Assembly (NCBI GenBank): GCA_030688365.1
Contig: JAUYIE010000021.1
Location: 9,866 to 73,865 of the forward strand
Source of the DNA: a bacterium
Lineage (GTDB): Bacteria; Patescibacteriota; Patescibacteriia; JACQRZ01
Direction of reading: 5' to 3'
Length of the DNA stretch: 64,000 nucleotides
Made by a program: the position numbers and the translations under genes. The notes beneath the pieces are model-generated. The model was not told the DNA's origin and did not search any database. It saw only the letters and a list, made by a program, of their open reading frames with translations. Below are positions 4,498-63,059 of the stretch, one piece after another. How positions within the stretch are numbered: position 1 is the first letter of the stretch; every line of letters begins with the position of its first letter.

Positions 4498-5118
4498 CTA
4501 CAAAATAATCACCTCGCCATCTGCAAGCGTTTTAAATGGCATGTTATTTTTTGTCATATATTCAACGGTTTTTTGTGCGCTTTCGGATTCTATATGATCT
4601 GAATTGTAATGCGGGATTATGGAATACGGGAGAATATGTAGACCACCCCAAATAACTTCCAAGTTGTCCCCATAGGGTTTTGCTGTCGGATCATCCATGA
4701 GTTCCATGCCATGTAACGTTGGTGCCAATACACAGATGCCAGCGCTATATCCTCCATACAGCAGATCATCTCTGGTGGCTAATTTTTTTATAATCACATC
4801 AAAACCGCTCATCCTCATCGCTTGTCTCAAGACGAAAATGTTGCCTCCGCGCACCCAGATGACGCCAGATTCAGAAAGTTTTTTTTCTAATTCAGTCGGG
4901 TTATCAAAATAATCGCGTAGATCAACGAGCTCAACATCTAGGCCGAGCGTTGTAAGTTGATTCATATCAGATTGTTCACTGATTTTGCGTCTTTCTAGAC
5001 CATCTGAAAAATCAAGAGCGTTGGGGATATAAGCAGTTTTTTTGTTCACTGCAGACAGCAGTGTTTTCAGCTTTTCAATCTCGTTTCCCAGTTTGTATGA
5101 GGATAGGTAGAGTTTCAT
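4498..5118 (-). CDS. Peptidase family S51 (dipeptidase E / cyanophycinase-like)
   Basis: 'YGGYSAGICVLAPTL' carries a GxSAG nucleophile elbow. 'IWVRGGNIFVLRQAMRMSGF' is typical of S51. Confidence 0.6.
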   Translation of the reverse strand: MKLYLSSYKLGNEIEKLKTLLSAVNKKTAYIPNALDFSDGLERRKISEQSDMNQLTTLGLDVELVDLRDYFDNPTELEKKLSESGVIWVRGGNIFVLRQAMRMSGFDVIIKKLATRDDLLYGGYSAGICVLAPTLHGMELMDDPTAKPYGDNLEVIWGGLHILPYSIIPHYNSDHIESESAQKTVEYMTKNNMPFKTLADGEVIIL

Positions 5119-5122
5119 AGAA

Positions 5123-5872
5123 TTATTTTCTCAACAAATCAGAAAGTGGTAAGAATTTTTTCTCTTTTGCAATCAAAATGTGATGAAACGTTCCCTTTGC
5201 CCAAAAAACCTTATACGCATTTGCCATTTTCTTGGAAGAAATAATGCGGTACGTCTCATCAATGATTTCGATCGCGCAACAGTTATCAATCGCAACTGCT
5301 ATTCCCTCTGTCTTTTTCATCATTTTCTTCAGGTCAGATTTACGGTCTTTTTCAAAATCATAATGAGGACATAAAAGGGCAGAGACCAAGTTTAATCCTG
5401 AAACTTTTATCAATGGGGCGTTCGGGTTTTTCATTTTTCGAGAATCAGAGTTGCCGTACTTGAACCAGCAAATCGCGCCCGCGCTCAATCCAGAAAGCAC
5501 GATTCCTTTGTCGTATGCCTGCCTTAAGAGTACAACCACGCCGTATTTTTTCCACGCCTGCATCATTTTCAACGTATCTCCACCCCCAACGTAGATAATA
5601 TCAGCAGACAAAATTTTATTCTTTATTTCTTGTTGTGTGAGTGCGCCCTTCAGAAGATACAACACTTCTGTTCTACACCCCAGCTTTTTACCAAAATAGT
5701 TTTTGACTGTTTCAAAATAGGATTCACTGTCCCCGCTGGCGGTAGGAATAAAAAGCAGAACAGGATTTTTCTTGCCAGTCAGTTTGATAATTTCTTTATC
5801 AATTTTTGTTGTCTCAATGGGATAGCCTGGTCTGCCTATATCCCCACCACCGATGGCAATGATTTTCTTCAT
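5123..5872 (-). CDS. Peptidase family S51 (dipeptidase E / cyanophycinase-like), second tandem copy
   Basis: Motifs 'IIAIGGGD', 'IIYVGGGDTLKMMQAW' and 'LSGLSAGAICWF' are present. It is a paralog of the adjacent gene. Confidence 0.65.
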   Translation of the reverse strand: MKKIIAIGGGDIGRPGYPIETTKIDKEIIKLTGKKNPVLLFIPTASGDSESYFETVKNYFGKKLGCRTEVLYLLKGALTQQEIKNKILSADIIYVGGGDTLKMMQAWKKYGVVVLLRQAYDKGIVLSGLSAGAICWFKYGNSDSRKMKNPNAPLIKVSGLNLVSALLCPHYDFEKDRKSDLKKMMKKTEGIAVAIDNCCAIEIIDETYRIISSKKMANAYKVFWAKGTFHHILIAKEKKFLPLSDLLRK

Positions 5873-5950
5873 ATGGTGTACTTTTTAAAGCGTTTATTAT
5901 GATATAGTGTAGTAGTAATGACTTATTAATACAAATAGAAAGGAGGAGAA

Positions 5951-6871
5951 ATGCTAGACACCCATACAATAGACCAAATAATACACCAAATTGAAGGATT
6001 GCTTGGTATTACCATCGTTGAAAGGGAGCTGTCAGATTTGCAAGGTACTGATGGCCATGTATTTATCGTTACTGACAAGGATGGGACTGAATATGTTATA
6101 AAATACAGCCCCAATGCAATAAATGACGTGGTCGCTCTTAATCTGATCAAAGAAAAAAATCTTACCATCCCAGTGCCGAAGTTATTCGGATATTTTTCTT
6201 TCAAAGGAAAAACGGTTGTTGTTTTAGAAAAAATTACGTTTCCTTTATTGGATCAAACATCAAGGGAAAGATACCACCTGTATATCAAATCGATGATAGA
6301 CCATTTACAAAAAATACATACGGTCAAATCAAAGATTGCCGGGTTTGTCTCAAATCAAGAAAAACGGATGTCTTGGCAACAGTTTTTGTTAAATATGTAT
6401 ACAGAAAAGAGTCCATTTTTTGATTGGAGAGAGATAGTGTCTCGTGATGGTGTAGATACAAAACTCGTGCAAAAGGCACTTACCGCCGTAGTAAAAAAGA
6501 TTGAAAATCAAAAATTTCTTGACCCGACATATTCTCTATTACATACGGATTTTAATCAAAAAAATCTTTTTGTAGACCAAAAATTACATGCAATTTCCTC
6601 TATCACTGATTGGAGTGAAGCCATGTTCGGGGATCCGCTATATGATTTTGTGAGGATTAGGTTGTATATTTTTCATTTTAATTTGAAGCATGGTTCACGT
6701 AAAACATACTTTGACCTATTGCATCTCACCAAAGAAGAAAAAGAACGAGAGGAACTATATTTTGTCATCCAGATTTTAAACTACATAGGATGGTATTCGG
6801 AAGTAAAAAATGATTTTAATACCTCACGATTGGCGATGCATCAAGAGTTTTTGAAAAATTATCCGTGGTAG
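5951..6871 (+). CDS. Phosphotransferase enzyme family (APH-like small-molecule kinase)
   Basis: The Brenner-like motif 'LLHTDFNQKNLFVD' (HxDxxxxN) and the activation segment 'ITDWSEAMFGDPLYDF' (the DxG/DFG equivalent of APH kinases) are present. Confidence 0.65.
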   Translation: MLDTHTIDQIIHQIEGLLGITIVERELSDLQGTDGHVFIVTDKDGTEYVIKYSPNAINDVVALNLIKEKNLTIPVPKLFGYFSFKGKTVVVLEKITFPLLDQTSRERYHLYIKSMIDHLQKIHTVKSKIAGFVSNQEKRMSWQQFLLNMYTEKSPFFDWREIVSRDGVDTKLVQKALTAVVKKIENQKFLDPTYSLLHTDFNQKNLFVDQKLHAISSITDWSEAMFGDPLYDFVRIRLYIFHFNLKHGSRKTYFDLLHLTKEEKEREELYFVIQILNYIGWYSEVKNDFNTSRLAMHQEFLKNYPW

Positions 6872-6874
6872 TCT

Positions 6875-7213
6875 ATGACACATCATAAACTCAAAAACGA
6901 CAAGTACGTAAAAGCTCGCGATGGCAATTCGTATTTTTTAGATCTCTACTGCAGTCGGTGTGAGCAATTTCTTGTTCTCTATCAAAAGGACGGGCAAGGT
7001 GCATTGATACGGCTGTATCTTGATCGATTTTTTGCCCCGAAAGAATTAGCAGTATTACAGTACGATTGTAAAGAAAAGAAGGATATGCCTAATCTCAAAT
7101 GTTCAAAATGTGGCGTACTTATTGCCACACCAATGATGTATGAGTCTGAACAGAGACCGGCATTTCGTTTGATTCGCGGTGCATTCGTAAAGAAAATGAC
7201 CATTGACAAATAA
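6875..7213 (+). CDS. Zinc-ribbon hypothetical protein
   Basis: Two CxxC pairs (CSRCEQF ... CSKCGV). It starts 3 nt after the APH-like gene. Confidence 0.4.
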   Translation: MTHHKLKNDKYVKARDGNSYFLDLYCSRCEQFLVLYQKDGQGALIRLYLDRFFAPKELAVLQYDCKEKKDMPNLKCSKCGVLIATPMMYESEQRPAFRLIRGAFVKKMTIDK

Positions 7214-7258
7214 GATAGTGAATATTAGGCTTGTGTGTAGTTTAACTTTCTTGTATTT

Positions 7259-7846
7259 ATGATATTTAGAGGAGTAGTCAGTCAGGATGGAATACGATGT
7301 GATGTACACCATATGGATGTAGATCATTTTAATGATATCCCCGACAATTTAAAATTGAAGGCACATGCCGTATGCTTATATAATGGTAAAATATTGTTAG
7401 TCCATCATCCAGAATGGGGTATCTGGAGTATTCCTGGTGGCACTCGTGAGCGGGGGGAATCAATAGAAGAAACCTTAGTAAGGGAAATATTAGAGGAAGC
7501 GAATTGTAAGGTGATTGATTGTCAACCCATAGCTTTTCAAAAAGTTGTTAATCCTAGCGATGAAACACTGTATTATCGATTACAATATTTCTGTAATGTT
7601 ATACCTGTGGAAGATTTTAAGGAAGATCCTGCCGGAAATATAGATAAAATCGCATGGATACAACCACGTGATTTTGAATTATATATCGAAAATAAGGAGT
7701 TTAAAATAATAGTGATCAGACGTGCGCTTGAATTATTAAAAAATATGAAGATCAAAAAGCTCGATAAAAATATTATCAGAGTTATTGCTAACGAGAAAGA
7801 CTATATCCTTGCAGAACCGATGGATTTTAGAAAAGAGTTTAGTTAA
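7259..7846 (+). CDS. NUDIX hydrolase, second copy
   Basis: Nudix box 'GGTRERGESIEETLVREILEEANCKV'. Confidence 0.7.
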   Translation: MIFRGVVSQDGIRCDVHHMDVDHFNDIPDNLKLKAHAVCLYNGKILLVHHPEWGIWSIPGGTRERGESIEETLVREILEEANCKVIDCQPIAFQKVVNPSDETLYYRLQYFCNVIPVEDFKEDPAGNIDKIAWIQPRDFELYIENKEFKIIVIRRALELLKNMKIKKLDKNIIRVIANEKDYILAEPMDFRKEFS

Positions 7847-8561
7847 AATTTGCTATAGACCATTTTTTGGGAAGTGGTCTTGTTTTTGTGTAAATGTATT
7901 TTATTAAAGCCGATAAAATTTTTATTTTGTCTTGCCTATCGGTGGCAAGATAAAAATGATTAACGAGATTTCCAAATCTTTTATCAATATCATTAAGTCG
8001 TGCGTGTAATTCCTTTGGTTGTCTAAGAAAATCTCCATTTATTTTTAGAAATAGTTCCATAATATTATTTATCAAAAGTTGGCTGTCTACGCCAAACGCC
8101 ACAGAGTCTTGATTTTTTGCGTCTCGTCGTACTTCACCCAAGAAATCGTCTATAGAATATTTATGCATTAAGATTTCCTCTTTTGTATATTTTGTCTTGA
8201 GATTGAGATTTGACTTTGCAATTGCTTGTATTTTCGCAATAGAGGCGCTCCTTTGAAAAAGTATTGCACTATGTGCCAGCATGTGAGAAGTATTTCTCTT
8301 TAAGGCATTTTTATCTTCATTCAAATATTTGTTTGTTTCATTTATAGGTTCAATGATTATATCAATTGGAATGCCGTACTTTATCAGACCTATTCGAGCA
8401 AATTTCGCAAGTTTACGTACTATTATATAGAAATCAATATCAGAATATTCGTCGGAGGTATCTCGTGCCGCAGATCCAAATACCATAATACCCAAGACAT
8501 TTTTGTCTGGTTTGTATTGTGTGACTATCTCGTCGTAGATCTTTTGAACAATTTTTTGCAT
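7839..8561 (-). CDS. Nucleotidyltransferase of the Pol-beta superfamily (ANT/KNTase/Lnu-like, or a minimal NTase)
   Basis: The N-terminal 'GIMVFGSAARDTSDEYSDIDFYIIV' carries the GS...DxD motif of the NTase fold. The C-terminal ~140 aa is helical. Confidence 0.65.
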   Translation of the reverse strand: MQKIVQKIYDEIVTQYKPDKNVLGIMVFGSAARDTSDEYSDIDFYIIVRKLAKFARIGLIKYGIPIDIIIEPINETNKYLNEDKNALKRNTSHMLAHSAILFQRSASIAKIQAIAKSNLNLKTKYTKEEILMHKYSIDDFLGEVRRDAKNQDSVAFGVDSQLLINNIMELFLKINGDFLRQPKELHARLNDIDKRFGNLVNHFYLATDRQDKIKILSALIKYIYTKTRPLPKKWSIANFN

Positions 8562-8599
8562 AAAAAAAAGATTAAGGTTAGTTTAACACTGAACCTTAA
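8562..8599 (-). terminator. Intrinsic terminator downstream of the small-peptide ORF / rSAM operon on the minus strand
   Basis: Stem TTAAGGTT (8572-8579) pairs with AACCTTAA (8592-8599) around a 12-nt loop. On the minus transcript it is followed by a U-run of 8-9 (the A-run at 8562-8570). Confidence 0.55.
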
Positions 8600-8614
8600 T
8601 CCTGTTAAGCCATT

Positions 8615-8689
8615 TTACTTGCAGTTACTTGGTTTCTTGCAAGTTTTTCCTGGCTTTATCACTGGTAGTGATATAACAATTATTTCCAT
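8615..8689 (-). CDS. 24-aa small peptide, MEIIVISLPVIKPGKTCKKPSNCK. It is a candidate precursor or substrate peptide of the adjacent rSAM/SPASM enzyme.
   Basis: Hand translation of the minus strand. The Shine-Dalgarno AAAGGAGGTG ends 6 nt before the ATG (8687-8689). The ORF begins 12 nt after the rSAM stop codon (8702-8704) and an intrinsic terminator follows. It is under 60 aa and so is absent from the ORF track. Confidence 0.5.
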   Translation of the reverse strand: MEIIVISLPVIKPGKTCKKPSNCK

Positions 8690-8701
8690 TTTGCACCTCC
8701 T

Positions 8702-10123
8702 TTATATAGATTGAGGAAGCGTTACCTCGATAGACGCCTCCAATAATTGATCTTTTAATATTTCTTTAGTTATATCACGATAAAAATTGCACATTCGTTC
8801 AATTTTTGTCGTACCGGTAGCTTTTGCAAATTCATGAGTTATTTTGCAGCCTCCACCACAGTGACCTTCAATCATGCATCCCTTGCACATTTCCATAACT
8901 CCAGTGAGATGATCCTCAACCAACTTATAATATGGACTTCCGAACGAATAAAAAGACTGTATTGTAGCAATGTCTCCAATCTGATCCACACTATAGCCAC
9001 AGCTATAGATTTTCCCCGATGGAGCAACGCATATACTATTACCCTCGATCGCACCACAGAATGTCACACGTTTATCAAGCGGAGAGTCACTTAAGTTTTC
9101 TGCAGGACGAGACCAAAATCCAGGAACATCGACCCCTAATCGTTTTCCATATCTACGCATGTTCATTAATTTGGAAATGATCTCATATATAGGAATACTT
9201 ACCATACCTATGACATCTATGTCAATTCTTACATTGGTCATGCCGTGTGTAACTGCCCAATCAATTAGAGACTCATTCAGTTCATGAAAATTGTTTTCCG
9301 TAATCGTTACCGCAATGCCATTGAGTGGATATCCTACTCTTTTTAGGGTTTGAAACCCATCAGTGATCTCACCGTAGGTACCACGCCCTGACTTTGTCAT
9401 TCTGACGCTATCGTTCCCTTTTTGTAACCCATCAAGACTTGACGCAATATCAACATTATATTGCTTCAGGGTTTCGGCAATTTCTTTTGTCATCAGAGAT
9501 GCATTTGTATTTATGGAGAAGTGTATATCAAATGTGCCACTATACGCTTCATCGCAGTATTCAATAATTTGTTTTATTACCTGCCAGTTGAGAAGTGGTT
9601 CACCTCCTCCAAAGTTGATTTCCGCAACATGTTTGTTGTGTATTTTAAGGATATCTAAGTATTTATCCACAGTCTTTTTTGCCAAATGGAATGACATGAA
9701 TTTTTTAGGACTGTTGATTCGATCAGAGATTTCCAGGTTGTTGAAATGTATACAGTAGGTGCAACGAAAGTTGCAGGATTCGCACATAATCAGCTCAAGA
9801 TATTCTACCAGGGATCCATTAGTAATATCTATTTTTCTGCGTTGCATCGTTTCTACAAGTAGTTTTCTCTCATCAAGTGTTTTTGGTTTGAGAAAATAAC
9901 AACGAACCAATTCGTCAATTGCCTCCTGTCCCGCGTTTGTTTCATGTGTGTCATACCACGAAAGAAGTGTTTTTGGTTCCAAAAAATAGTTGAGAAATTC
10001 TAATGTTGCAGAGGAAACAATTTTTGGATATCCAAATAAAGAATGCCAAATTACGAAAACACCATCGTTCTCAATCTGTTGAATGAATGCCGATCTAACT
10101 AATACATTATCGTTGTCTACCAT
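8702..10123 (-). CDS. Radical SAM / SPASM-domain enzyme (peptide-modifying maturase-like, anSME family). It has a ~125-aa N-terminal extension that may be an RRE-like domain.
   Basis: 'CNFRCTYC' (CxxxCxxC) lies at about residue 126. The C-terminal SPASM is 'CGAIEGNSICV...GKIYSC' plus 'CKGCMIEGHCGGGC' (exact Cx2Cx5Cx3C), with a later Cys in 'ERMCNF'. The Shine-Dalgarno AAGGAAAAAA lies upstream of the ATG. Confidence 0.85.
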   Translation of the reverse strand: MVDNDNVLVRSAFIQQIENDGVFVIWHSLFGYPKIVSSATLEFLNYFLEPKTLLSWYDTHETNAGQEAIDELVRCYFLKPKTLDERKLLVETMQRRKIDITNGSLVEYLELIMCESCNFRCTYCIHFNNLEISDRINSPKKFMSFHLAKKTVDKYLDILKIHNKHVAEINFGGGEPLLNWQVIKQIIEYCDEAYSGTFDIHFSINTNASLMTKEIAETLKQYNVDIASSLDGLQKGNDSVRMTKSGRGTYGEITDGFQTLKRVGYPLNGIAVTITENNFHELNESLIDWAVTHGMTNVRIDIDVIGMVSIPIYEIISKLMNMRRYGKRLGVDVPGFWSRPAENLSDSPLDKRVTFCGAIEGNSICVAPSGKIYSCGYSVDQIGDIATIQSFYSFGSPYYKLVEDHLTGVMEMCKGCMIEGHCGGGCKITHEFAKATGTTKIERMCNFYRDITKEILKDQLLEASIEVTLPQSI

Positions 10124-10176
10124 TGTATTTTTTCCTTTCTTTGTTTTTTGTCAATGTCCGATAAGTTGGTATTTAC

Positions 10177-10194
10177 CATATTCTTTGGTATATT
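10177..10194. promoter_or_regulatory. Perfect palindrome CCGTGTA-aata-TACACGG upstream of the rSAM gene. It is a candidate operator.
   Basis: 7-bp inverted repeat with a 4-nt spacer. It sits just upstream of a TTGCAA-17-TAAATA minus-strand promoter-like site. Confidence 0.4.
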
Positions 10195-10404
10195 GCAACC
10201 CGTGTAAATATACACGGTCTGTTGGATACAATTGTAATCGAGGCATAAAAATATAAATATACTGTCTAGTTTGTGGTAGTCAAAAATAGGTCAGGCTTGA
10301 TAATATAATATTATCTCCATATTTTTGGGCGAAAAAAGATGTAAAGTGTGTGGATAACAAATGACCTAATAAGGCGTTTTTCGGTGAAAAACCTTTGTTT
10401 TACA

Positions 10405-10480
10405 AAAATTGACATGGCATTGACAAACCCATGTTCTTGTGATACGAGAAGGTGTAGGATTATATATAAGGTATATAAAG
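10405..10480 (+). promoter_or_regulatory. AT-rich promoter-like region for the methyltransferase gene
   Basis: Two TTGACA hexamers (10409-10414 and 10420-10425) and TATATA/TATAAA boxes (10461-10479). The exact -35/-10 pairing is ambiguous. Confidence 0.3.
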
Positions 10481-10518
10481 GGTTAGACCTTTTAAAATTA
10501 AAAAAGGAGCATTGGCTA

Positions 10519-11646
10519 ATGTCAAATTTAGAAAAAAAATTAGATACAAAACAAAACATCGAAAGCACTGCACGGATAAATTCCATTGCATTGTATGTGC
10601 CTGAAAAAAGCACAAGCGAATTATTGGATGGCGTAGAAGTTACTGTATATGGTAAAAATGGATTTGAGTATAAAAATCCACTATTCTGGTTCGTTTATGA
10701 CCGCATCGTAGGAAAATGTCTTGAAAATGTGGTTGAACGCAAAACAAGGAACATTCTTGGTAAATATCTCAGTGCTGATGAAAAGAAGACATTAGTTCAC
10801 TTGGATACTAGAACTACAACATTGGGACCATATCGTAGAAATTTTGGATTGAAGCAAGACTGGGCAGAGATATTTTTGCTCGAAACTACTTTGTTTAATA
10901 GAGGTTCACCGGTTATGAAACACCTCTGTGAGAATGTGGCGAATGCGCCCGGTCTTGATGATGTGTATAATAACAATGGTGGTTTTGCATGGAATGGACT
11001 TAAAATATTTCCATTGTCCGGCGAGCCAGACCTATTGTCAAATATATACATGGACAAGCCTGAGGCGCAGGGTACCAGAAATCGTTATTACATGCTTTTA
11101 AGATTATATGACCAGTTTGGGGGTGGTAAAACACTATCAATCGCTTGCGGGTCTGCACAGCCATTAATTCATGCTGTGAATAGATTTGTAAGTGAAAAAC
11201 ACTATAATTTAGATAACACAACATTAGTTTTGACTGACCAAGATGCTCGTAGTTTAGATTTGGCTAGATTAAGGGCCAAACAGGCAAATATTGAAGATAG
11301 GGTTCAATTCGTCCAATCTTCGTATCTGGAACTAGGCGATGCATTAGGAAATGAAAAATTTGATATTGTTGAGGCATGTGGTATAGCCGACTATCTGCCG
11401 GACAAATATTTCAAATCTTTAGTGGAAAAGGCAATGAGTTATTTGAACGTTGGTGGAAAGTTACTCATTTCTAATATGATGCCCGGGGTGTGGTCTTCTT
11501 TTATCAGAAGAACTTACAACTGGGAGATGATTTATAGAACAACACATCAGGTTGCAGAATTATTGAAAGAATCCGGGCAGAAAGATATACGCATTTATGT
11601 TGAACCGTGGAAGGTTCACATGATTGCGGTCGTTACAAAACATTAA
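10519..11646 (+). CDS. Class I SAM-dependent methyltransferase, O-methyltransferase-like
   Basis: Motif I-like 'LSIACGSAQPLIHAV', 'LVLTDQDARSLDLARL', 'FDIVEACGIADYLPD' and 'LNVGGKLLISNM'. The start is chosen at the ATG preceded by AAAAAGGAG. The ORF track extends it to 10348. Confidence 0.65.
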   Translation: MSNLEKKLDTKQNIESTARINSIALYVPEKSTSELLDGVEVTVYGKNGFEYKNPLFWFVYDRIVGKCLENVVERKTRNILGKYLSADEKKTLVHLDTRTTTLGPYRRNFGLKQDWAEIFLLETTLFNRGSPVMKHLCENVANAPGLDDVYNNNGGFAWNGLKIFPLSGEPDLLSNIYMDKPEAQGTRNRYYMLLRLYDQFGGGKTLSIACGSAQPLIHAVNRFVSEKHYNLDNTTLVLTDQDARSLDLARLRAKQANIEDRVQFVQSSYLELGDALGNEKFDIVEACGIADYLPDKYFKSLVEKAMSYLNVGGKLLISNMMPGVWSSFIRRTYNWEMIYRTTHQVAELLKESGQKDIRIYVEPWKVHMIAVVTKH

Positions 11647-11721
11647 TAGGAATCATACAAAATCATGGAGACAGAGATAAAAAATCTGTCTTTTTATTTT
11701 TGTAGATGATAATATGTATAC

Positions 11722-13884
11722 ATGACATACTATTCCATTACCTCACTAATAAATTTTCTAGTCAGTTTTGGACTCGGTTTTTTTATTTTGACAAGGAGAG
11801 AAAAGACTCGATTACACAAATTAGTTGCATTTTTTTGTTTTGCTATATTTTTTTGGAGTTTCTTTTATTTTTTATGGCAAATTACTGAAACAAAAGAATA
11901 TGCACTTTGGTTTACACGTTTATTAATGGTGGGTGCTATTCTTGCCCCCGTTGCATATTGTAAGGTTGTTCTTGCATTTCTGGATTTAGAACAAGTACAT
12001 GCACGTTTGGTGAGAGTGTCATATATTTTAACTGGATTTTTTCTCATTTTACTACCAACAAAATTAATGGTACTTAAAATAGAGGCCGTACCAGGGTTTG
12101 AATTTTGGCCAAAACCAGGCTTATTTTTTATTCCTTTTTTAGTATTTTTTTTCTCATTAACATTTTTTAGTATTTATTTGACAGCCAAATCAGTATTGAA
12201 CGAAAAATCATCATACAAAAGTCGCCAAGCTAGATTAATGTTACTAGGAATAGCATTGACATTTATTGGGGGATCCACAAATTATTTTCTTTGGTTTGAT
12301 ATTAACATACCACCTTATGGTAACATTTTGGCTTGTAGTTATGTTATATTGACAACATATGCAATTTTGCGCCATCAGCTTATGGATATCAAGGTTGTTT
12401 TACGTAAGTATTCTGTATATTTCGTTTCCCTTTTTTCCGTCATCGCGCTTGCGGGATTGTTTCAATATGGATATAAAACGATCTTGGGTATCAGCAATTT
12501 TTATATCGATATCATCATCACCGGTCTTGCGGTGAGCATCTTTCCGGTGTTACGGTCGTATTATTATCGTTTTGCCAATACCTATCTTTTCACTTCGCTG
12601 TATGACACGAAGCAGGTTATTTCCAAACTAAGCGAAAAACTTCGCTCTACGCTGGAGACCGAGGAAATCTATCGCACGCTTTCCGACACTATCCAAAACG
12701 CGCTTCATATACGCAGTATTGGTCTTTTGACATACGACCATGACAAAGAAGAATACAGCATAGCCCAATGTGAAAGAGAAGAGACATGCAATCCGGTGGT
12801 GCAAAAATTAAATAAAAAATTTGTGGATTATTTGGTGACGCATGATCGGCCGATCCTCACTGCTGAAATAGATGATCGGTTTGCGGTGTTGAAGCGATTA
12901 TTGGCGCCCAGTACCGAAGTTCTTGTTCCTCTCAACCTCAAAGGCAAGCACATCGGGCTCATGCTGATAGGCCAAAAAGAGGCGAGTGATTCGTTTGATG
13001 ATGAAGATGTGAGTCTTCTTAAGATTGTGGGGTCGCAGACCGCTATTGCGCTGGAAAACGCGTTGTTGTATGGAGAAGCGCAACATTTCAATGAAGTGCT
13101 TAAGCAAAGGATCGCGCGTGCGACAAAGCAGTTGCGTTCGCAGAATGAAAAACTCAAAGAGCTGGACGAGATGAAAACCGAGTTCATCTCCATCGCATCG
13201 CACCAGCTTCGTACGCCGTTGACCGCGACAAAGTGGGCGTTGGATTTTTTGCTCAAGGGCGCGGATGGCAAGATAAATCCAAAACAGCGCGAGTCGCTGT
13301 CGGAACTTTCGGTCATGAATGTCCGCCTTATCACCTTGGTCAATGAGCTTCTCAATATTTCTCGTATTGACGAGGGACGCGTGAAGGTTGAGCCAAAGCC
13401 GACAAGTATCACAAAGGTGGTCAAAGAGATTTTGGCGGAGTTCATGCCTATCATTCGCAAAAAAGGTATTATTTTGCAAGAGCATTATGATACGGTGCCA
13501 CTCATCAAGCTGGATGCGGGTGTCATCGGCAAGGCGCTTTCCAATGTGTTGTCAAACGGCATAAAGTACAATACCGACGGCAAACATTTGTGGGTGGAGG
13601 TAGCCAAACACAAAGACGACGTCGCGATCATCGTGAAAGATGAAGGGATCGGCATCCCAACCAAAGAGCAGGATCATCTGTTCCAGAAGTTTTATCGCGC
13701 GTCAAACGCCATGACGTCAAACACGGAAGGGACGGGCTTTGGGCTGTATATCGCCAAATCCGCCATCGAGCTGTCAGGCGGAAGCATTTCTTTTGAATCA
13801 AAAGAGGGGGTGGGTACGACATTTACTGTCTTCGTGCCTCTCAAAGGCTCCCGCGCACGCAAAGGGGAGAAGAGTTTGGCATGA
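11722..13884 (+). CDS. Sensor histidine kinase with an N-terminal multi-TM domain, a GAF-like domain, HisKA and HATPase_c
   Basis: About 7 N-terminal TM helices. H-box 'FISIASHQLRTPLTA'. N/G boxes 'SNGIKYN' and 'GTGFGLYIAKS'. Confidence 0.85.
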   Translation: MTYYSITSLINFLVSFGLGFFILTRREKTRLHKLVAFFCFAIFFWSFFYFLWQITETKEYALWFTRLLMVGAILAPVAYCKVVLAFLDLEQVHARLVRVSYILTGFFLILLPTKLMVLKIEAVPGFEFWPKPGLFFIPFLVFFFSLTFFSIYLTAKSVLNEKSSYKSRQARLMLLGIALTFIGGSTNYFLWFDINIPPYGNILACSYVILTTYAILRHQLMDIKVVLRKYSVYFVSLFSVIALAGLFQYGYKTILGISNFYIDIIITGLAVSIFPVLRSYYYRFANTYLFTSLYDTKQVISKLSEKLRSTLETEEIYRTLSDTIQNALHIRSIGLLTYDHDKEEYSIAQCEREETCNPVVQKLNKKFVDYLVTHDRPILTAEIDDRFAVLKRLLAPSTEVLVPLNLKGKHIGLMLIGQKEASDSFDDEDVSLLKIVGSQTAIALENALLYGEAQHFNEVLKQRIARATKQLRSQNEKLKELDEMKTEFISIASHQLRTPLTATKWALDFLLKGADGKINPKQRESLSELSVMNVRLITLVNELLNISRIDEGRVKVEPKPTSITKVVKEILAEFMPIIRKKGIILQEHYDTVPLIKLDAGVIGKALSNVLSNGIKYNTDGKHLWVEVAKHKDDVAIIVKDEGIGIPTKEQDHLFQKFYRASNAMTSNTEGTGFGLYIAKSAIELSGGSISFESKEGVGTTFTVFVPLKGSRARKGEKSLA

Positions 13885-59506: not shown

Positions 59507-60013
59507 ATGGGAGACAAGCTGATGATTTTTAGTCGCACATTAAAAACAAAAAAAGTAACAAAAAAGTACGTGATTCGGTATCAATGTTTTGACGATAGAC
59601 TGTGTGAGATCACAGAGGATTTCGTGGTTAGACATGAAGGTGTTGAATCTTGCAAAGAACTTCCCTGCGCTGGGGGTGTGAAAGAGATTGCAGTACCGAC
59701 ACATCAAAGTGTTCAGGATTTTATTTTGTGTCATTTTAGAATCGTAATAAATGGCATAAGAAAGAAAGACCCAGATGCGGAGATCATCGTCTATCTATTT
59801 AATCATACGGATTGTCATTATTATAGGAATCACCCAAATTATGCTGTGTTTGAAACCTATGAAGAAGAGATAGAGACACATATACAGCATCTGTTCATAG
59901 CAGCCGAGATAGTCACTCTGACATTTAATGTCAGGGTTGTGCCAGTCTTGGTAAGACTTGAAGACAGTGTTGAATTTGAAGTTATTGCAATACCTGAGTT
60001 TGCGTACGTGTAG
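59507..60013 (+). CDS. Hypothetical protein, a possible distant paralog of the preceding gene with 'CFDDR' and 'NHTDCH' motifs
   Basis: C27-x-D-D-R and H100-x-x-C103 are present. Confidence 0.35.
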   Translation: MGDKLMIFSRTLKTKKVTKKYVIRYQCFDDRLCEITEDFVVRHEGVESCKELPCAGGVKEIAVPTHQSVQDFILCHFRIVINGIRKKDPDAEIIVYLFNHTDCHYYRNHPNYAVFETYEEEIETHIQHLFIAAEIVTLTFNVRVVPVLVRLEDSVEFEVIAIPEFAYV

Positions 60014-60095
60014 CAAAAGTATTTTTCGAGTCACCATCATGAAAAAACCTAGGTGGGCTCTTTTTTTTTACCCGCGTGAGTGCTACAGTATCGCT

Positions 60096-63059
60096 ATGAA
60101 TACCCCTGATTTACTCTCTGATCTCAATGAAGCCCAAAAGTCGGCCGTAACTGCCGGTGAGGGTCCTTTTTTGATTATTGCCGGTGCGGGGACTGGCAAG
60201 ACGACCGTGATCACGCGTCGTATTGCGTGGCTTATTTTAGAGAAAAATATCAAGCCGGAAGATATATTGGCGCTTACCTTTACCGAAAAGGCGGCGGGCG
60301 AGATGGAGGAGCGGTTGGATCGCCTGTTGCCGTATGGATATGTTCAGCTGTGGATATCTACGTTTCATGCATTTTGCGAGCGGATTATTCGTCAACATGC
60401 TCTTGATATTGGACTCCCTGGAGATGTTCGACTGTTAGATCAGACAGCGTTGTGGTTACTGATGCGACGAAACTTGCATCGTTTTAATCTTGAGTATTAT
60501 CGACCGCTAGGCAATCCGACAAAGTTTTTACATTCATTGATCCAGCATTTTTCTCGCGCTAAAGATGAGGCGGTAAGTCCGGTGGAATATCTCGCTTTGG
60601 CGGAAAACTTGATTTTAAATAAAGATACGGGCGCGACAGAAGATGGCGACATTGGACTTGATGCTGTGCGTATCAAAGAAGTCGCTGATGCATATCATGT
60701 ATATGAACAATTGCTTTTAGAAAACAACGCGATGGATTTTGGGGGAGTGATTACCAATACATTGAAACTTTTTCGTGAGCGTCCGGCTATCTTGGAAAAA
60801 TATCGCCAGCAGTTTAAATACATCCTTGTCGATGAGTTTCAAGATACCAACTGGGCGCAGTATGAGCTGGTGAAGATGTTAGCAACGCCACGTGATAATC
60901 TTATGGTCGTGGGAGATGATGATCAGGCTGTATATGCGTGGAGAAACGCGTCTGTTGCATATATATTTCAATTCAAAAAAGATTTCCCCGCAAGCAAGGA
61001 AGTGGTACTGACCAACAATTATCGTTCGGCGCAAGAGATCCTTGACTGCGCGTATCGCTTCATCCAACTCAACAATCCTCATCGTCTGGAATACACACTT
61101 TCGCAAGAAGGTTCCGGACTTTCAAAACAACTCACTTCATACACAAAAGAAACCGGCATTGTGGAACATATCCATTGCGGGACACTGGAAGAAGAAATTG
61201 ATCGTGTCATCACGACGATTTTACAGAAAAAAGAAAAAGAAACGCTCGCATGGTCGGACTTTGCGATCCTTGTACGTTCAAACGATGCGGCTCTGCCGTT
61301 CATTGAGCGTTTGCAAGAGATGGATTTGCCGTATCATTTCATCGCACACAAAGGGTTGTACACCAAAGCCGTGATTATGGATGTACTTTCATATATGCGC
61401 GTACTCATCCATCCAAACGATGGTGTGTCTATGTATCGCGTGCTCAACATGCCCCCGATCAACCTATCTACGAGTAGTTATCTCGCGTTGGGAGGTTTTG
61501 CACATAAAAAAGGATACTCACTATGGCAGGCAATGGAACATCATCTTGAAATCACAGATATTCCCGAAGAAGAACACGCAGTCATCGCGGGTGTGGTAGC
61601 GATGATAAACCGCCATTCAGGCGAGGCACGCATAAAAAAAGCCGCTGAATTATTTTTACATATCGTCAAAGACATCGGATATCTGGTGTACTTAAAAAAA
61701 GAGGAGACAAAAGAAACGCACGAGGCGTTTAGTTATTTCAATCAATTTTACAAAAAAATCCGCACACTTCAACAAGAAGATCCGAGTCTGAAACTTGCTG
61801 ATGTGCTGGAAATCATAGGATATGAACAGCAAGCCGGCGATGAGGGGTCTCTGCCGTCCGATGGTGGGGGAGATTATGATGCGATCAAGATCATGACGAT
61901 CCACGCATCAAAAGGTCTGGAGTTTGCGTATGTGTTCCTTGCAAACATGGTTGACAAGCGGTTCCCGACGATTAGCCGCAATGAAGGTATTCCTCTCCCT
62001 GATCAGCTGGTAAAAGAAGAAGTGCCGGAAGGGGATATTCATATCGAAGAAGAGCGTAGGTTGTGTTATGTAGGTATAACGCGCGCAAAACGCGGTATTT
62101 ATTTTACCTCTGCGCAAAATTACGGCGGTGTGCGAGCAAAAAAGCCATCACGATTTTTGGAGGAGTTGGGATTTGTCATAGTCACTCCTGAAGGTACTTC
62201 AAAAGATACTTCATTACCCGAGCCGACAATGCATACGCCAAGCCCTGCAGTGATCATCCCTCTCCCGCATGTATTCAGTTTTTCACAGTTGGCCGCATTC
62301 GCATCATGTCCTTTGCAATACAAGTTTGCCTTTATATTGCGTATTCCCACTTTTGGCAAGGCATCGTTCAGTTTTGGAAAATCAATACACGCGACGCTTG
62401 AGGCGCTGTTTCGTCTTATCCTAGAAAATACCGGCAAACAGCAAGCAGGTCTTTTCCCGAACGTGGATACAGGTTATAATGAAAAAGGAACTATTCCTCC
62501 GTGGAAAACAGTGGAAGATCTCTATGAAAAATCGTGGATTGACGAATGGTACGCCGATCGTCGCACCCACGATCAGTATTTTGAAAAAGGTAAAGAGGGT
62601 TTGAAACAGCTTCATCAGGATTTGCTGGTAAACGGCGTGACGCCAAAAGCAGTGGAGCGCGATTTCACACTCAAGATGTCCATTGGATCGGATCAGTATT
62701 CTCTCAAAGGGCGTATTGATCGCGTGGATATGCACGGAGCGGACGGTGTGGCGATCATTGACTACAAAACAGGTACACCGAAGATTCTGAAAGATTTGCG
62801 TACGGAAGACAAGGAACAGTTGGTGTTGTATCAGATCGCGTGCGAAGATCTTTTTAAAGAAAAAGTGGAAGAGTTGACGTATTATTACATAGAGGACGGT
62901 TCCAGGGTGTCGTTTTTGGCAAATGAAAAGGAGAAAGAGAAACTCAAGGAACGGGTGCAGGAAAGGATAGAAGCGATACGCGGAAGCAATTTTGAGCCGA
63001 CGCCCGGTTTTCAATGTAAGTTTTGCGATTTTTGGGACATTTGTGATTATAGGCAATAA
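60096..63059 (+). CDS. UvrD/PcrA-family SF1 helicase fused to a C-terminal PD-(D/E)xK, Cas4/AddB-like nuclease with a 4Fe-4S cysteine set
   Basis: 'AGAGTGKTTVITRR' is Walker A. 'VDEFQDTNWAQY', 'TIHASKGLEF' and 'VGITRAK' are helicase motifs. The C-terminal 'CPLQYKF', 'IIDYKTGT' and 'CKFCDFWDICD' mark the nuclease and Fe-S cluster. The start is at 60096. Confidence 0.8.
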   Translation: MNTPDLLSDLNEAQKSAVTAGEGPFLIIAGAGTGKTTVITRRIAWLILEKNIKPEDILALTFTEKAAGEMEERLDRLLPYGYVQLWISTFHAFCERIIRQHALDIGLPGDVRLLDQTALWLLMRRNLHRFNLEYYRPLGNPTKFLHSLIQHFSRAKDEAVSPVEYLALAENLILNKDTGATEDGDIGLDAVRIKEVADAYHVYEQLLLENNAMDFGGVITNTLKLFRERPAILEKYRQQFKYILVDEFQDTNWAQYELVKMLATPRDNLMVVGDDDQAVYAWRNASVAYIFQFKKDFPASKEVVLTNNYRSAQEILDCAYRFIQLNNPHRLEYTLSQEGSGLSKQLTSYTKETGIVEHIHCGTLEEEIDRVITTILQKKEKETLAWSDFAILVRSNDAALPFIERLQEMDLPYHFIAHKGLYTKAVIMDVLSYMRVLIHPNDGVSMYRVLNMPPINLSTSSYLALGGFAHKKGYSLWQAMEHHLEITDIPEEEHAVIAGVVAMINRHSGEARIKKAAELFLHIVKDIGYLVYLKKEETKETHEAFSYFNQFYKKIRTLQQEDPSLKLADVLEIIGYEQQAGDEGSLPSDGGGDYDAIKIMTIHASKGLEFAYVFLANMVDKRFPTISRNEGIPLPDQLVKEEVPEGDIHIEEERRLCYVGITRAKRGIYFTSAQNYGGVRAKKPSRFLEELGFVIVTPEGTSKDTSLPEPTMHTPSPAVIIPLPHVFSFSQLAAFASCPLQYKFAFILRIPTFGKASFSFGKSIHATLEALFRLILENTGKQQAGLFPNVDTGYNEKGTIPPWKTVEDLYEKSWIDEWYADRRTHDQYFEKGKEGLKQLHQDLLVNGVTPKAVERDFTLKMSIGSDQYSLKGRIDRVDMHGADGVAIIDYKTGTPKILKDLRTEDKEQLVLYQIACEDLFKEKVEELTYYYIEDGSRVSFLANEKEKEKLKERVQERIEAIRGSNFEPTPGFQCKFCDFWDICDYRQ

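Follow-up and report, generated by a model that had tools for sequence, protein, structure and literature searches.

Closest described systems and the locus under study

Peptides modified by radical S-adenosylmethionine (radical SAM) enzymes are a well-known kind of peptide that is made ribosomally and then post-translationally modified (RiPP). One of these enzymes, TigE, is a methyl-cyclopropylglycine synthase whose N-terminal RiPP recognition element (RRE) comprises residues 3-85 (PMC10878394). The tyrosine of its GYW motif, Tyr339, is an indispensable ligand of auxiliary cluster I, and the Y339F variant is inactive (PMC10878394). Here, we analyzed a stretch of 64,000 nucleotides from a bacterium of the Patescibacteriota (contig JAUYIE010000021.1 of assembly GCA_030688365.1, positions 9,866 to 73,865 of the forward strand), which we call the window. 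It is a fragment of a bacterial chromosome, encoding among others UvrABC, RecQ, and PilB. We found in it a radical SAM/SPASM protein, a peptide of 24 residues, a terminator hairpin, and a nucleotidyltransferase (NTase) arranged head to tail on the minus strand and spanning ~2.3 kb. We estimate the probability that these genes form a three-gene RiPP cassette, made of a maturase, its precursor peptide, and an NTase or, in other lineages, a GNAT acetyltransferase, at around 80%.

The closest relative of solved structure is the maturase of the TigE/TvgB systems (PDB 8VPO). It has the same succession of RRE, partial TIM barrel, and SPASM domain, and aligns with our protein from end to end. The systems are also alike in their logic, with a single maturase and a small unannotated precursor. 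However, the diagnostic GYW of TigE/TvgB is replaced in the present family by an invariant GFW (F336), and an additional invariant cysteine, Cys365, stands where TigE has a serine. The substrates differ as well. Those of TigE/TvgB are built of repeats, TVGG or TIGSVS, in which a Val or Ile is conserved, whereas the present peptide has a single C-terminal T-C-x-x-P-S-N-C core.

PapB (NF047865) and CteB (TIGR03974, PDB 5WGG) also combine RRE, radical SAM, and SPASM domains and act on cysteine-containing peptides. They are, respectively, the best match of our protein in NCBIfam and its second match in the PDB. The SCIFF systems are likewise minimal pairs of peptide and maturase lacking an exporter. 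Yet the scores of the present protein are far below the cut-offs of these families (136 bits vs 340 for PapB, 91 bits vs 425 for the SCIFF maturase TIGR03974). The SCIFF precursor has six cysteines and the present peptide two invariant ones. Similarly, PapB substrates have CX3D/E motifs and the present peptide has none: its near-invariant core is single, non-repeated, and free of Asp and Glu. The present cassette further differs from the PapB and CteB systems in that the precursor is located 3' of the maturase and in having a conserved NTase or GNAT partner. As for this NTase, it has the two-domain fold and the G-S...D-x-D motif of ANT(4') and of the Lnu lincosamide NTases, but its partner is a radical SAM-peptide pair and not a resistance island.

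A short peptide conserved next to the radical SAM gene

A genome scan with the radical SAM protein identified 49 related loci. The 3' end of the radical SAM gene is retained in 46 of them, while three loci end inside the gene. The 46 loci together with the window constitute the set of 47 used in what follows for the peptide.

In the window, the peptide open reading frame (ORF; MEIIVISLPVIKPGKTCKKPSNCK; 8615..8689, minus strand) starts 12 nt after the stop of the radical SAM gene (8702..10123, minus strand), and its Shine-Dalgarno sequence, AAGGAGGTG (8695..8703, minus strand), overlaps this stop codon. The same overlap (GAAAGGAGGTGA...ATG) is seen in most related loci. When all small ORFs 3' of the radical SAM gene were listed without bias, the same peptide recurred across loci, with the consensus M-QKAQQKQPRPALKVKALPKLKVLCTCQRPSNCH followed by a C-terminal T-C-x-x-P-S-N-C-[H/K/G/R]. 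A motif scan then revealed exactly one copy of the peptide in each locus of the set (47/47), so that the only loci devoid of the motif are the three broken off inside the radical SAM gene. The peptide directly follows this gene in all of the 47 loci but one, L026. There, it lies beyond the NTase gene and on the opposite strand (~8200-8310, minus strand), and a terminator-like hairpin is still present between the radical SAM and NTase genes.

The conservation of the peptide is concentrated at its C-terminal end. Four positions, C(-8), S(-4), N(-3), and C(-2), do not vary at all, and T(-9) and P(-5) hardly do. At the invariant residues, each of the possible synonymous codons occurs (TGT in 23 cases and TGC in 22 for Cys(-8), four codons for Pro). 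The pooled ratio of non-synonymous to synonymous differences (pN/pS) falls from 0.385 for the last 22 codons to 0.16 for the last 9, while the other two frames across the ORF have values of ~1 and mostly contain stops. Because the ORF recurs in 47/47 loci with turnover of synonymous codons at invariant residues, it is far more than a chance occurrence. These patterns of sequence evolution support the view that the 24 codons are a real and conserved gene, coding for the putative precursor peptide on which the adjacent radical SAM enzyme would act. We propose that IIVISLP is the leader and TCKKPSNCK (8618-8644) the core. The peptide of the window is a short variant that keeps the core and the stretch of alternating hydrophobic residues ending in LP.

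Neither the peptide of the window nor those of the related loci are recognized by a model of Pfam or NCBIfam, and the precursor gene is almost never annotated. Exact look-ups of nine peptide sequences in a collection of 15 billion proteins returned two, both unnamed. A preliminary description of this DNA, made from its letters alone, had reported the two-cysteine ORF of 24 residues, its Shine-Dalgarno site, its position 12 nt downstream of the radical SAM gene, and the terminator after it. It took the arrangement for a precursor and its maturase, with a core unlike that of any annotated RiPP family, and suggested looking for the small ORF next to homologs of the enzyme. All these elements are confirmed. 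The proposed pairing is supported by the linkage in every locus of the set, the purifying selection on the last codons, and the RRE described below, and the novelty of the core by the lack of a curated model covering it.

The radical SAM/SPASM maturase and its N-terminal domain

The radical SAM protein has 473 residues and is present in NCBI as MDP2656652.1, with "radical SAM protein" as sole annotation. Pfam Radical_SAM matches it at 4e-20. It carries the CX3CX2C motif of the radical SAM cluster (C117-x3-C121-x2-C124, CNFRCTYC; 9752..9775, minus strand) and an exact CX2CX5CX3C motif in the SPASM domain (C413-x2-C416-x5-C422-x3-C426, CKGCMIEGHCGGGC; 8846..8887, minus strand). Both had been noted in the preliminary description and turn out to be invariant in the alignment of the family (A1). 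The SPASM motif is found in 120 of 120 homologs. The SPASM cysteines that are invariant in A1 are eight in total, as C356, C365, C375, and C445 add to the four of the motif, and two auxiliary clusters call for at least seven. The counterpart of the GYW of cyclopropyl synthases is G335-F336-W337 (9113..9121, minus strand), which aligns to G338-Y339-W340 of TigE. GFW is invariant in A1, and the longer GFWSRP is found in 111 of the 120 homologs.

A database search at E <= 1e-10 resulted in 423 clusters of homologs. The top 120 are 56-64% identical to the protein of the window. The family is conserved along its whole length, including the N-terminal domain, with a mean column identity of 76% in A1. 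This search did not return the protein itself, probably because MDP2656652.1 is filed in a protein cluster where the representative and the further members listed are hypothetical proteins of 54 residues that bear no relation to it.

A profile search in the PDB placed TigE first (8VPO, E 2.3e-46, residues 9-458), followed by CteB (5WGG, 4e-24) and then by anaerobic sulfatase-maturating enzymes (anSME) and ChlB. Foldseek with the AlphaFold2 (AF2) model gave the same ranking, with 8VPO ahead of CteB, and aligned the protein to both structures over its full length, RRE included. In NCBIfam, the top matches are models of RiPP maturases (PapB, CcpM, HxsB, QhpD, SCIFF, and others), all below their curated cut-offs. 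Hence, the type of reaction cannot be transferred from a known enzyme.

The N-terminal extension preceding the radical SAM core has ~105-115 residues, of which roughly residues 1-105 make up an RRE-like domain (9809..10123, minus strand) that aligns to residues 7-108 of TigE. The part matching the RRE in the crystal structure of that enzyme is residues 9-100. In the AF2 model, this domain is built of three or four strands and then three helices (beta3-alpha3), with a predicted local distance difference test score (pLDDT) of ~80. The domain is highly conserved, and its IWHSLF segment is invariant in A1. The assignment as a peptide-binding RRE, a domain of the winged helix-turn-helix type, is by homology to TigE, since the domain has no match to the PqqD model. 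The preliminary description had placed an RRE in the extension, which this homology upholds, and had advised comparing the enzyme with families of models and searching for the RRE. The comparison gave a mixed answer: RiPP maturases came on top and the RRE of TigE could be aligned, but neither a family cut-off nor a match to PqqD was obtained. Judged by homology, the protein is an RRE-radical SAM-SPASM peptide maturase that adjoins the cyclopropyl synthases and lacks their defining feature.

A terminator separates the peptide from the downstream gene

The peptide ORF is followed in the window by an intrinsic terminator (8562..8602, minus strand) with a stem of 10-11 bp (GGATTAAGGTT / AACCTTAATC), a loop of 12 nt between the two arms, and a run of eight T. 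It folds with a free energy of -15.5 kcal/mol (z -4.2), and none of 200 shuffled sequences folds as well. A generic terminator scan missed it because of the 12-nt loop. Nearly all related loci likewise have a hairpin and T-run after the peptide, with stems of unrelated sequence. Hence, it is the structure that is conserved and not the sequence. The T-run directly abuts the ATG of the NTase in the window (8559-8570). In most related loci, too, the start codon of the NTase or GNAT gene comes right after the T-run and lacks a Shine-Dalgarno sequence, unlike the radical SAM and peptide genes, whose Shine-Dalgarno sites are near-perfect. TATACT- or TATAAT-like hexamers often occur within the terminator loop.

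Around half of the loci have another hairpin of 5-9 bp, distinct from the terminator, which sequesters the stop codon of the peptide. In loci L002, L005, L012, L016, L018, L024, L034, L037, and L044, it measures 6-9 bp, and the last two codons and the stop pair there with the bases that come next, within 15 nt of the stop codon on either side. Its changes from locus to locus are compensatory (TGCCAC/GTGGCA, TGTCACTA/TAGTGACA, TGCCATTAA/TTAATGGC). In the window it is weak (8600-8626). A search for an alternative anti-terminator pairing in the related loci found none.

The third gene encodes an NTase or a GNAT

The conserved third component of the cassette is the gene downstream of the terminator. 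In the window, this gene (7839..8561, minus strand) encodes an NTase of 240 residues with the fold of ANT(4')/kanamycin NTases, matched by Pfam Polbeta and NTP_transf_2. It was passed over in the preliminary description, even though it falls inside the region covered there. The gene after the peptide encodes such an NTase in 26 of the 49 loci and a GNAT of 160 residues in 18, always on the same strand and directly after the terminator. The choice between the two has no evident link to the peptide sequence, as near-identical peptides and maturases are found with either.

The AF2 model of the NTase has a pLDDT of 90.5. Its best Foldseek matches are ANT(4') structures (6NMK, 4EBJ, 1KNY), with template modeling scores of 0.63-0.68, followed by 3C18, HalB, and LinB. 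The catalytic motif is complete, G29, S30, D41, and D43 being invariant, and the family has an invariant C-terminal motif of its own, LMHKYSIDDF-GE--RD. The identity to the ANT(4') structures is 11-14% in the structural alignments, and the protein scores 23.9 bits against ANT_4p_I (NF033061), for which the cut-off is 350, which places it outside that family. The GNAT matches Acetyltransf_3 and Acetyltransf_1, and its best NCBIfam models are RimI and AAC(6').

We also performed the reverse look-up, starting from homologs of the NTase. Two out of three are located behind a radical SAM gene and an uncalled peptide. The third, in L055, is an intact gene preceded by a terminator and by a remnant of the peptide core of just 12 codons (MLCTCQRPSNCH), the radical SAM gene being gone. 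This would fit the retention of a protective gene. This decayed cassette (L055 3880-4720, and also L056) is located beside an apparent tRNA gene, and the NTase sequence of L055 is found on six contigs.

Neighboring genes and the divergent methyltransferase

The genes upstream of the radical SAM gene are never conserved, as revealed by the clustering of all flanking ORFs of the related loci. The preliminary description had reported a divergently encoded class I SAM methyltransferase in the window, and the gene indeed exists, with an AAGGAG Shine-Dalgarno sequence and an ATG at 10519 (plus strand; 375 residues), the start agreeing with the NCBI record. It had also been counted as part of the module, sharing a regulatory region with it. 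We considered it as a member of the cassette and rejected this idea: none of the 49 loci contains a homolog of it, and it pairs instead with the next gene, a 7TM-GAF histidine kinase (HisKA_7TM; 11722-13884, plus strand). Its homologs are directly upstream of a HisKA_7TM kinase in three independent contigs of the candidate phyla radiation (CPR; L050, L052, L054), as in the window. The methyltransferase thus belongs to a kinase operon, and the 395 nt between it and the radical SAM gene are mere space between two unrelated divergent operons. It has an N-terminal region of ~190 residues and is unrelated to the small SAM methyltransferase (c7, 212 residues) that is inserted after the peptide in three loci.

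On the other side of the cassette (4498-7846), the window encodes two tandem Peptidase_S51 proteins on the minus strand and, on the plus strand, an APH-type phosphotransferase, a cysteine-rich protein of 112 residues resembling a zinc ribbon, and a Nudix hydrolase. The genes of the hydrolase and of the NTase share 8 nt at their 3' ends. None of these genes is conserved beside the cassette in other loci. Further away, a PcrA/UvrD-type helicase with a Cas4/RecB-like nuclease domain at its C-terminus (an AddA-like fusion) is encoded at 59958-63059 (plus strand), and UvrA, UvrB, UvrC, and RecQ all lie within the same 64 kb. In some genomes of the Azambacteria type, the cassette is surrounded by several extra radical SAM/SPASM paralogs (L033, L057/L058, L012, L026, L028), with four copies in 13 kb in L033. 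These paralogs often have beside them a protein of 235-260 residues with an HExxH-like motif (AHELLHF) and a weak match to DUF3267 zincins. Such paralog-rich loci may be further RiPP systems. A P-loop kinase-like gene encoding 200 residues follows the NTase in L028, L029, and L033.

An Rfam scan of positions 7000-12000 of the window gave nothing relevant. The promoter scan of the window performed no better than on shuffled sequence, and we thus claim no promoter. PADLOC returned superfamily-level matches only (pVip for the radical SAM core, PDC-S09 for the NTase motif), which gives no sign of a known defence system.

A putative mechanism and its alternatives

In the RiPP cassette that we favor, the operon would be transcribed with the radical SAM gene first and the peptide second, the latter being translationally coupled through the Shine-Dalgarno site on the maturase stop codon. 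The N-terminal part of the peptide, with its alternating hydrophobic residues ending in L-P, would dock on the RRE in the form of a strand, after which the radical SAM/SPASM enzyme would modify the T-C-x-x-P-S-N-C-x core by radical chemistry. Given the affinities with PapB and CteB, we rank first, at somewhat less than an even chance, an intramolecular cross-link in which one of the invariant cysteines, or both, would take part. The GFW/Cys365 signature and the eight SPASM cysteines, as sequence features, leave room for other radical chemistry. The strong terminator would keep transcripts of the peptide abundant and let only read-through reach the third gene, which probably sets a high ratio of peptide to downstream gene. 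The NTase or GNAT would finally act on the peptide or its product. We tentatively favor, at a little below even odds, a role in self-protection by adenylylation or acetylation. Microcin C offers an analogy: its immunity involves RimI/J/L-type GNATs (MccE/RimL) that detoxify a peptide-derived antibiotic inside the antibiotic's own cluster, although microcin C itself is matured by an E1-like adenylyltransferase and not by a radical SAM enzyme. Tailoring of the product by the third gene has a somewhat lower probability. Self-protection is ranked somewhat above it because the NTase and the GNAT are interchangeable, both have folds of resistance enzymes, and one locus has an orphan NTase.

Several observations weigh against the cassette as we read it. 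The modification of the peptide by the enzyme is a prediction. The peptide of the window lacks the basic N-terminal stretch (~10 residues) of most homologs. The maturase fails all curated family cut-offs, its AF2 model is of moderate quality (pLDDT 66.8), and its N-terminal domain, scanned separately against Pfam, gives no RRE (PqqD) match. With Cys365 among its eight invariant SPASM cysteines, auxiliary cluster I may be fully ligated, unlike in CteB-type thioether synthases. The idea of immunity is built on analogy and on the single orphan locus. Finally, the cassette has no protease or exporter gene. Hence, the release and export of the product are unexplained, and the main rival is a modified peptide that stays in the cell as a cofactor, metal ligand, or redox molecule, akin to mycofactocin, PQQ, or SCIFF, with an NTase or GNAT that tailors or activates it instead of a secreted bioactive product. 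This would agree with the missing exporter and protease, with how unusually well the maturase (~60% identity across CPR classes) and the peptide core are kept, with the location of the core at the extreme C-terminus, and with hosts that have minimal genomes. Yet the distribution is patchy and no flanking gene is conserved, as in accessory or mobile cassettes. Near-identical peptides come with either of two third enzymes of different chemistry, which is hard to reconcile with one defined cofactor, and the NTase can persist after the loss of the radical SAM gene. We thus regard an intracellular cofactor as quite improbable.

The position of the ORF just before a terminator, with the T-run abutting the start of an NTase or GNAT gene devoid of Shine-Dalgarno sequence, recalls the attenuators of erm and cat. 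The ORF might then be mainly a cis-regulatory leader peptide, with the conduct of the ribosome at its conserved C-terminus and stop codon controlling the terminator and thereby the expression of the downstream gene, which encodes a resistance-enzyme fold, and the hairpin that sequesters the stop codon in around half of the loci, with its compensatory changes, could be part of such a device. Since the ORF tracks the radical SAM gene and not the downstream one, we disfavor this explanation and consider it very unlikely. The ORF is coupled to the radical SAM stop codon by its Shine-Dalgarno site in nearly all loci, and it is kept where the next gene encodes a methyltransferase (L001, L005, L020) or is on the opposite strand (L034). 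In L026, it even lies after the NTase and on the other strand. Moreover, the enzyme has an RRE, predicted to bind peptides, the window has a weak version of the stop-codon hairpin, and no anti-terminator pairing was found. The last explanation, that the enzyme acts on a protein or a small molecule like an anSME or a cofactor maturase and that the small ORF is incidental, has a practically negligible probability. It could invoke the weak, superfamily-level matches to anSME and viperin, but the score against the anSME model TIGR03942 is 95 bits for a cut-off of 349, an RRE is present, the ORF is under purifying selection and present throughout the 47 loci, and neither a sulfatase nor another candidate substrate gene is conserved nearby. 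The preliminary description had already judged an anSME role unlikely, and rightly so.

Distribution and significance

Among the top 120 homologs of the maturase, almost all those with a source name are from Patescibacteria/CPR (Magasanik-, Brenner-, Uhr-, Peregrini-, Sacchari-, and Parcubacteria). The cassette itself is found in groups of the Parcubacteria type, in Peregrinibacteria, and in gut and oral Saccharibacteria, including a metagenome-assembled genome of Nanosynbacter. Patescibacteria represent a large share of bacterial diversity and live as episymbionts with minimal genomes. They are usually seen as nearly devoid of natural-product pathways. Surveys of biosynthetic gene clusters often report few or none in these bacteria (for example PMC11613949). 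The present family is absent from Pfam, NCBIfam, PADLOC, and Rfam, and our search of the literature accessible to us found no description of its core motif, of a GFW maturase, of the ANT-like or GNAT partner, or of its distribution in Patescibacteria.

The results support the addition to family databases of a model for the peptide (…LP-x-x-K-x-x-x-T-C-x-x-P-S-N-C-H) and of one for the maturase. Beyond annotation, the interest of the cassette is mainly for radical SAM enzymology and CPR biology. The maturase adjoins the cyclopropyl synthases and lacks their essential tyrosine, so that its chemistry is probably different. It is unusual for a RiPP to be associated with either of two enzymes that can replace each other, both of the antibiotic-modifying type. 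One may go further and imagine that Patescibacteria share a dedicated RiPP system, whose GFW/Cys365 maturase, branching from the cyclopropyl-synthase lineage, would carry out a new kind of radical reaction on T-C-x-x-P-S-N-C to make a bioactive peptide, with self-protection by the NTase or GNAT, but this full scenario is unlikely to hold in all its parts. The cassette provides a concrete candidate molecule for CPR biology and, if this full scenario is true, the peptide would be a candidate effector in the interactions of these episymbionts with their hosts or their competitors.

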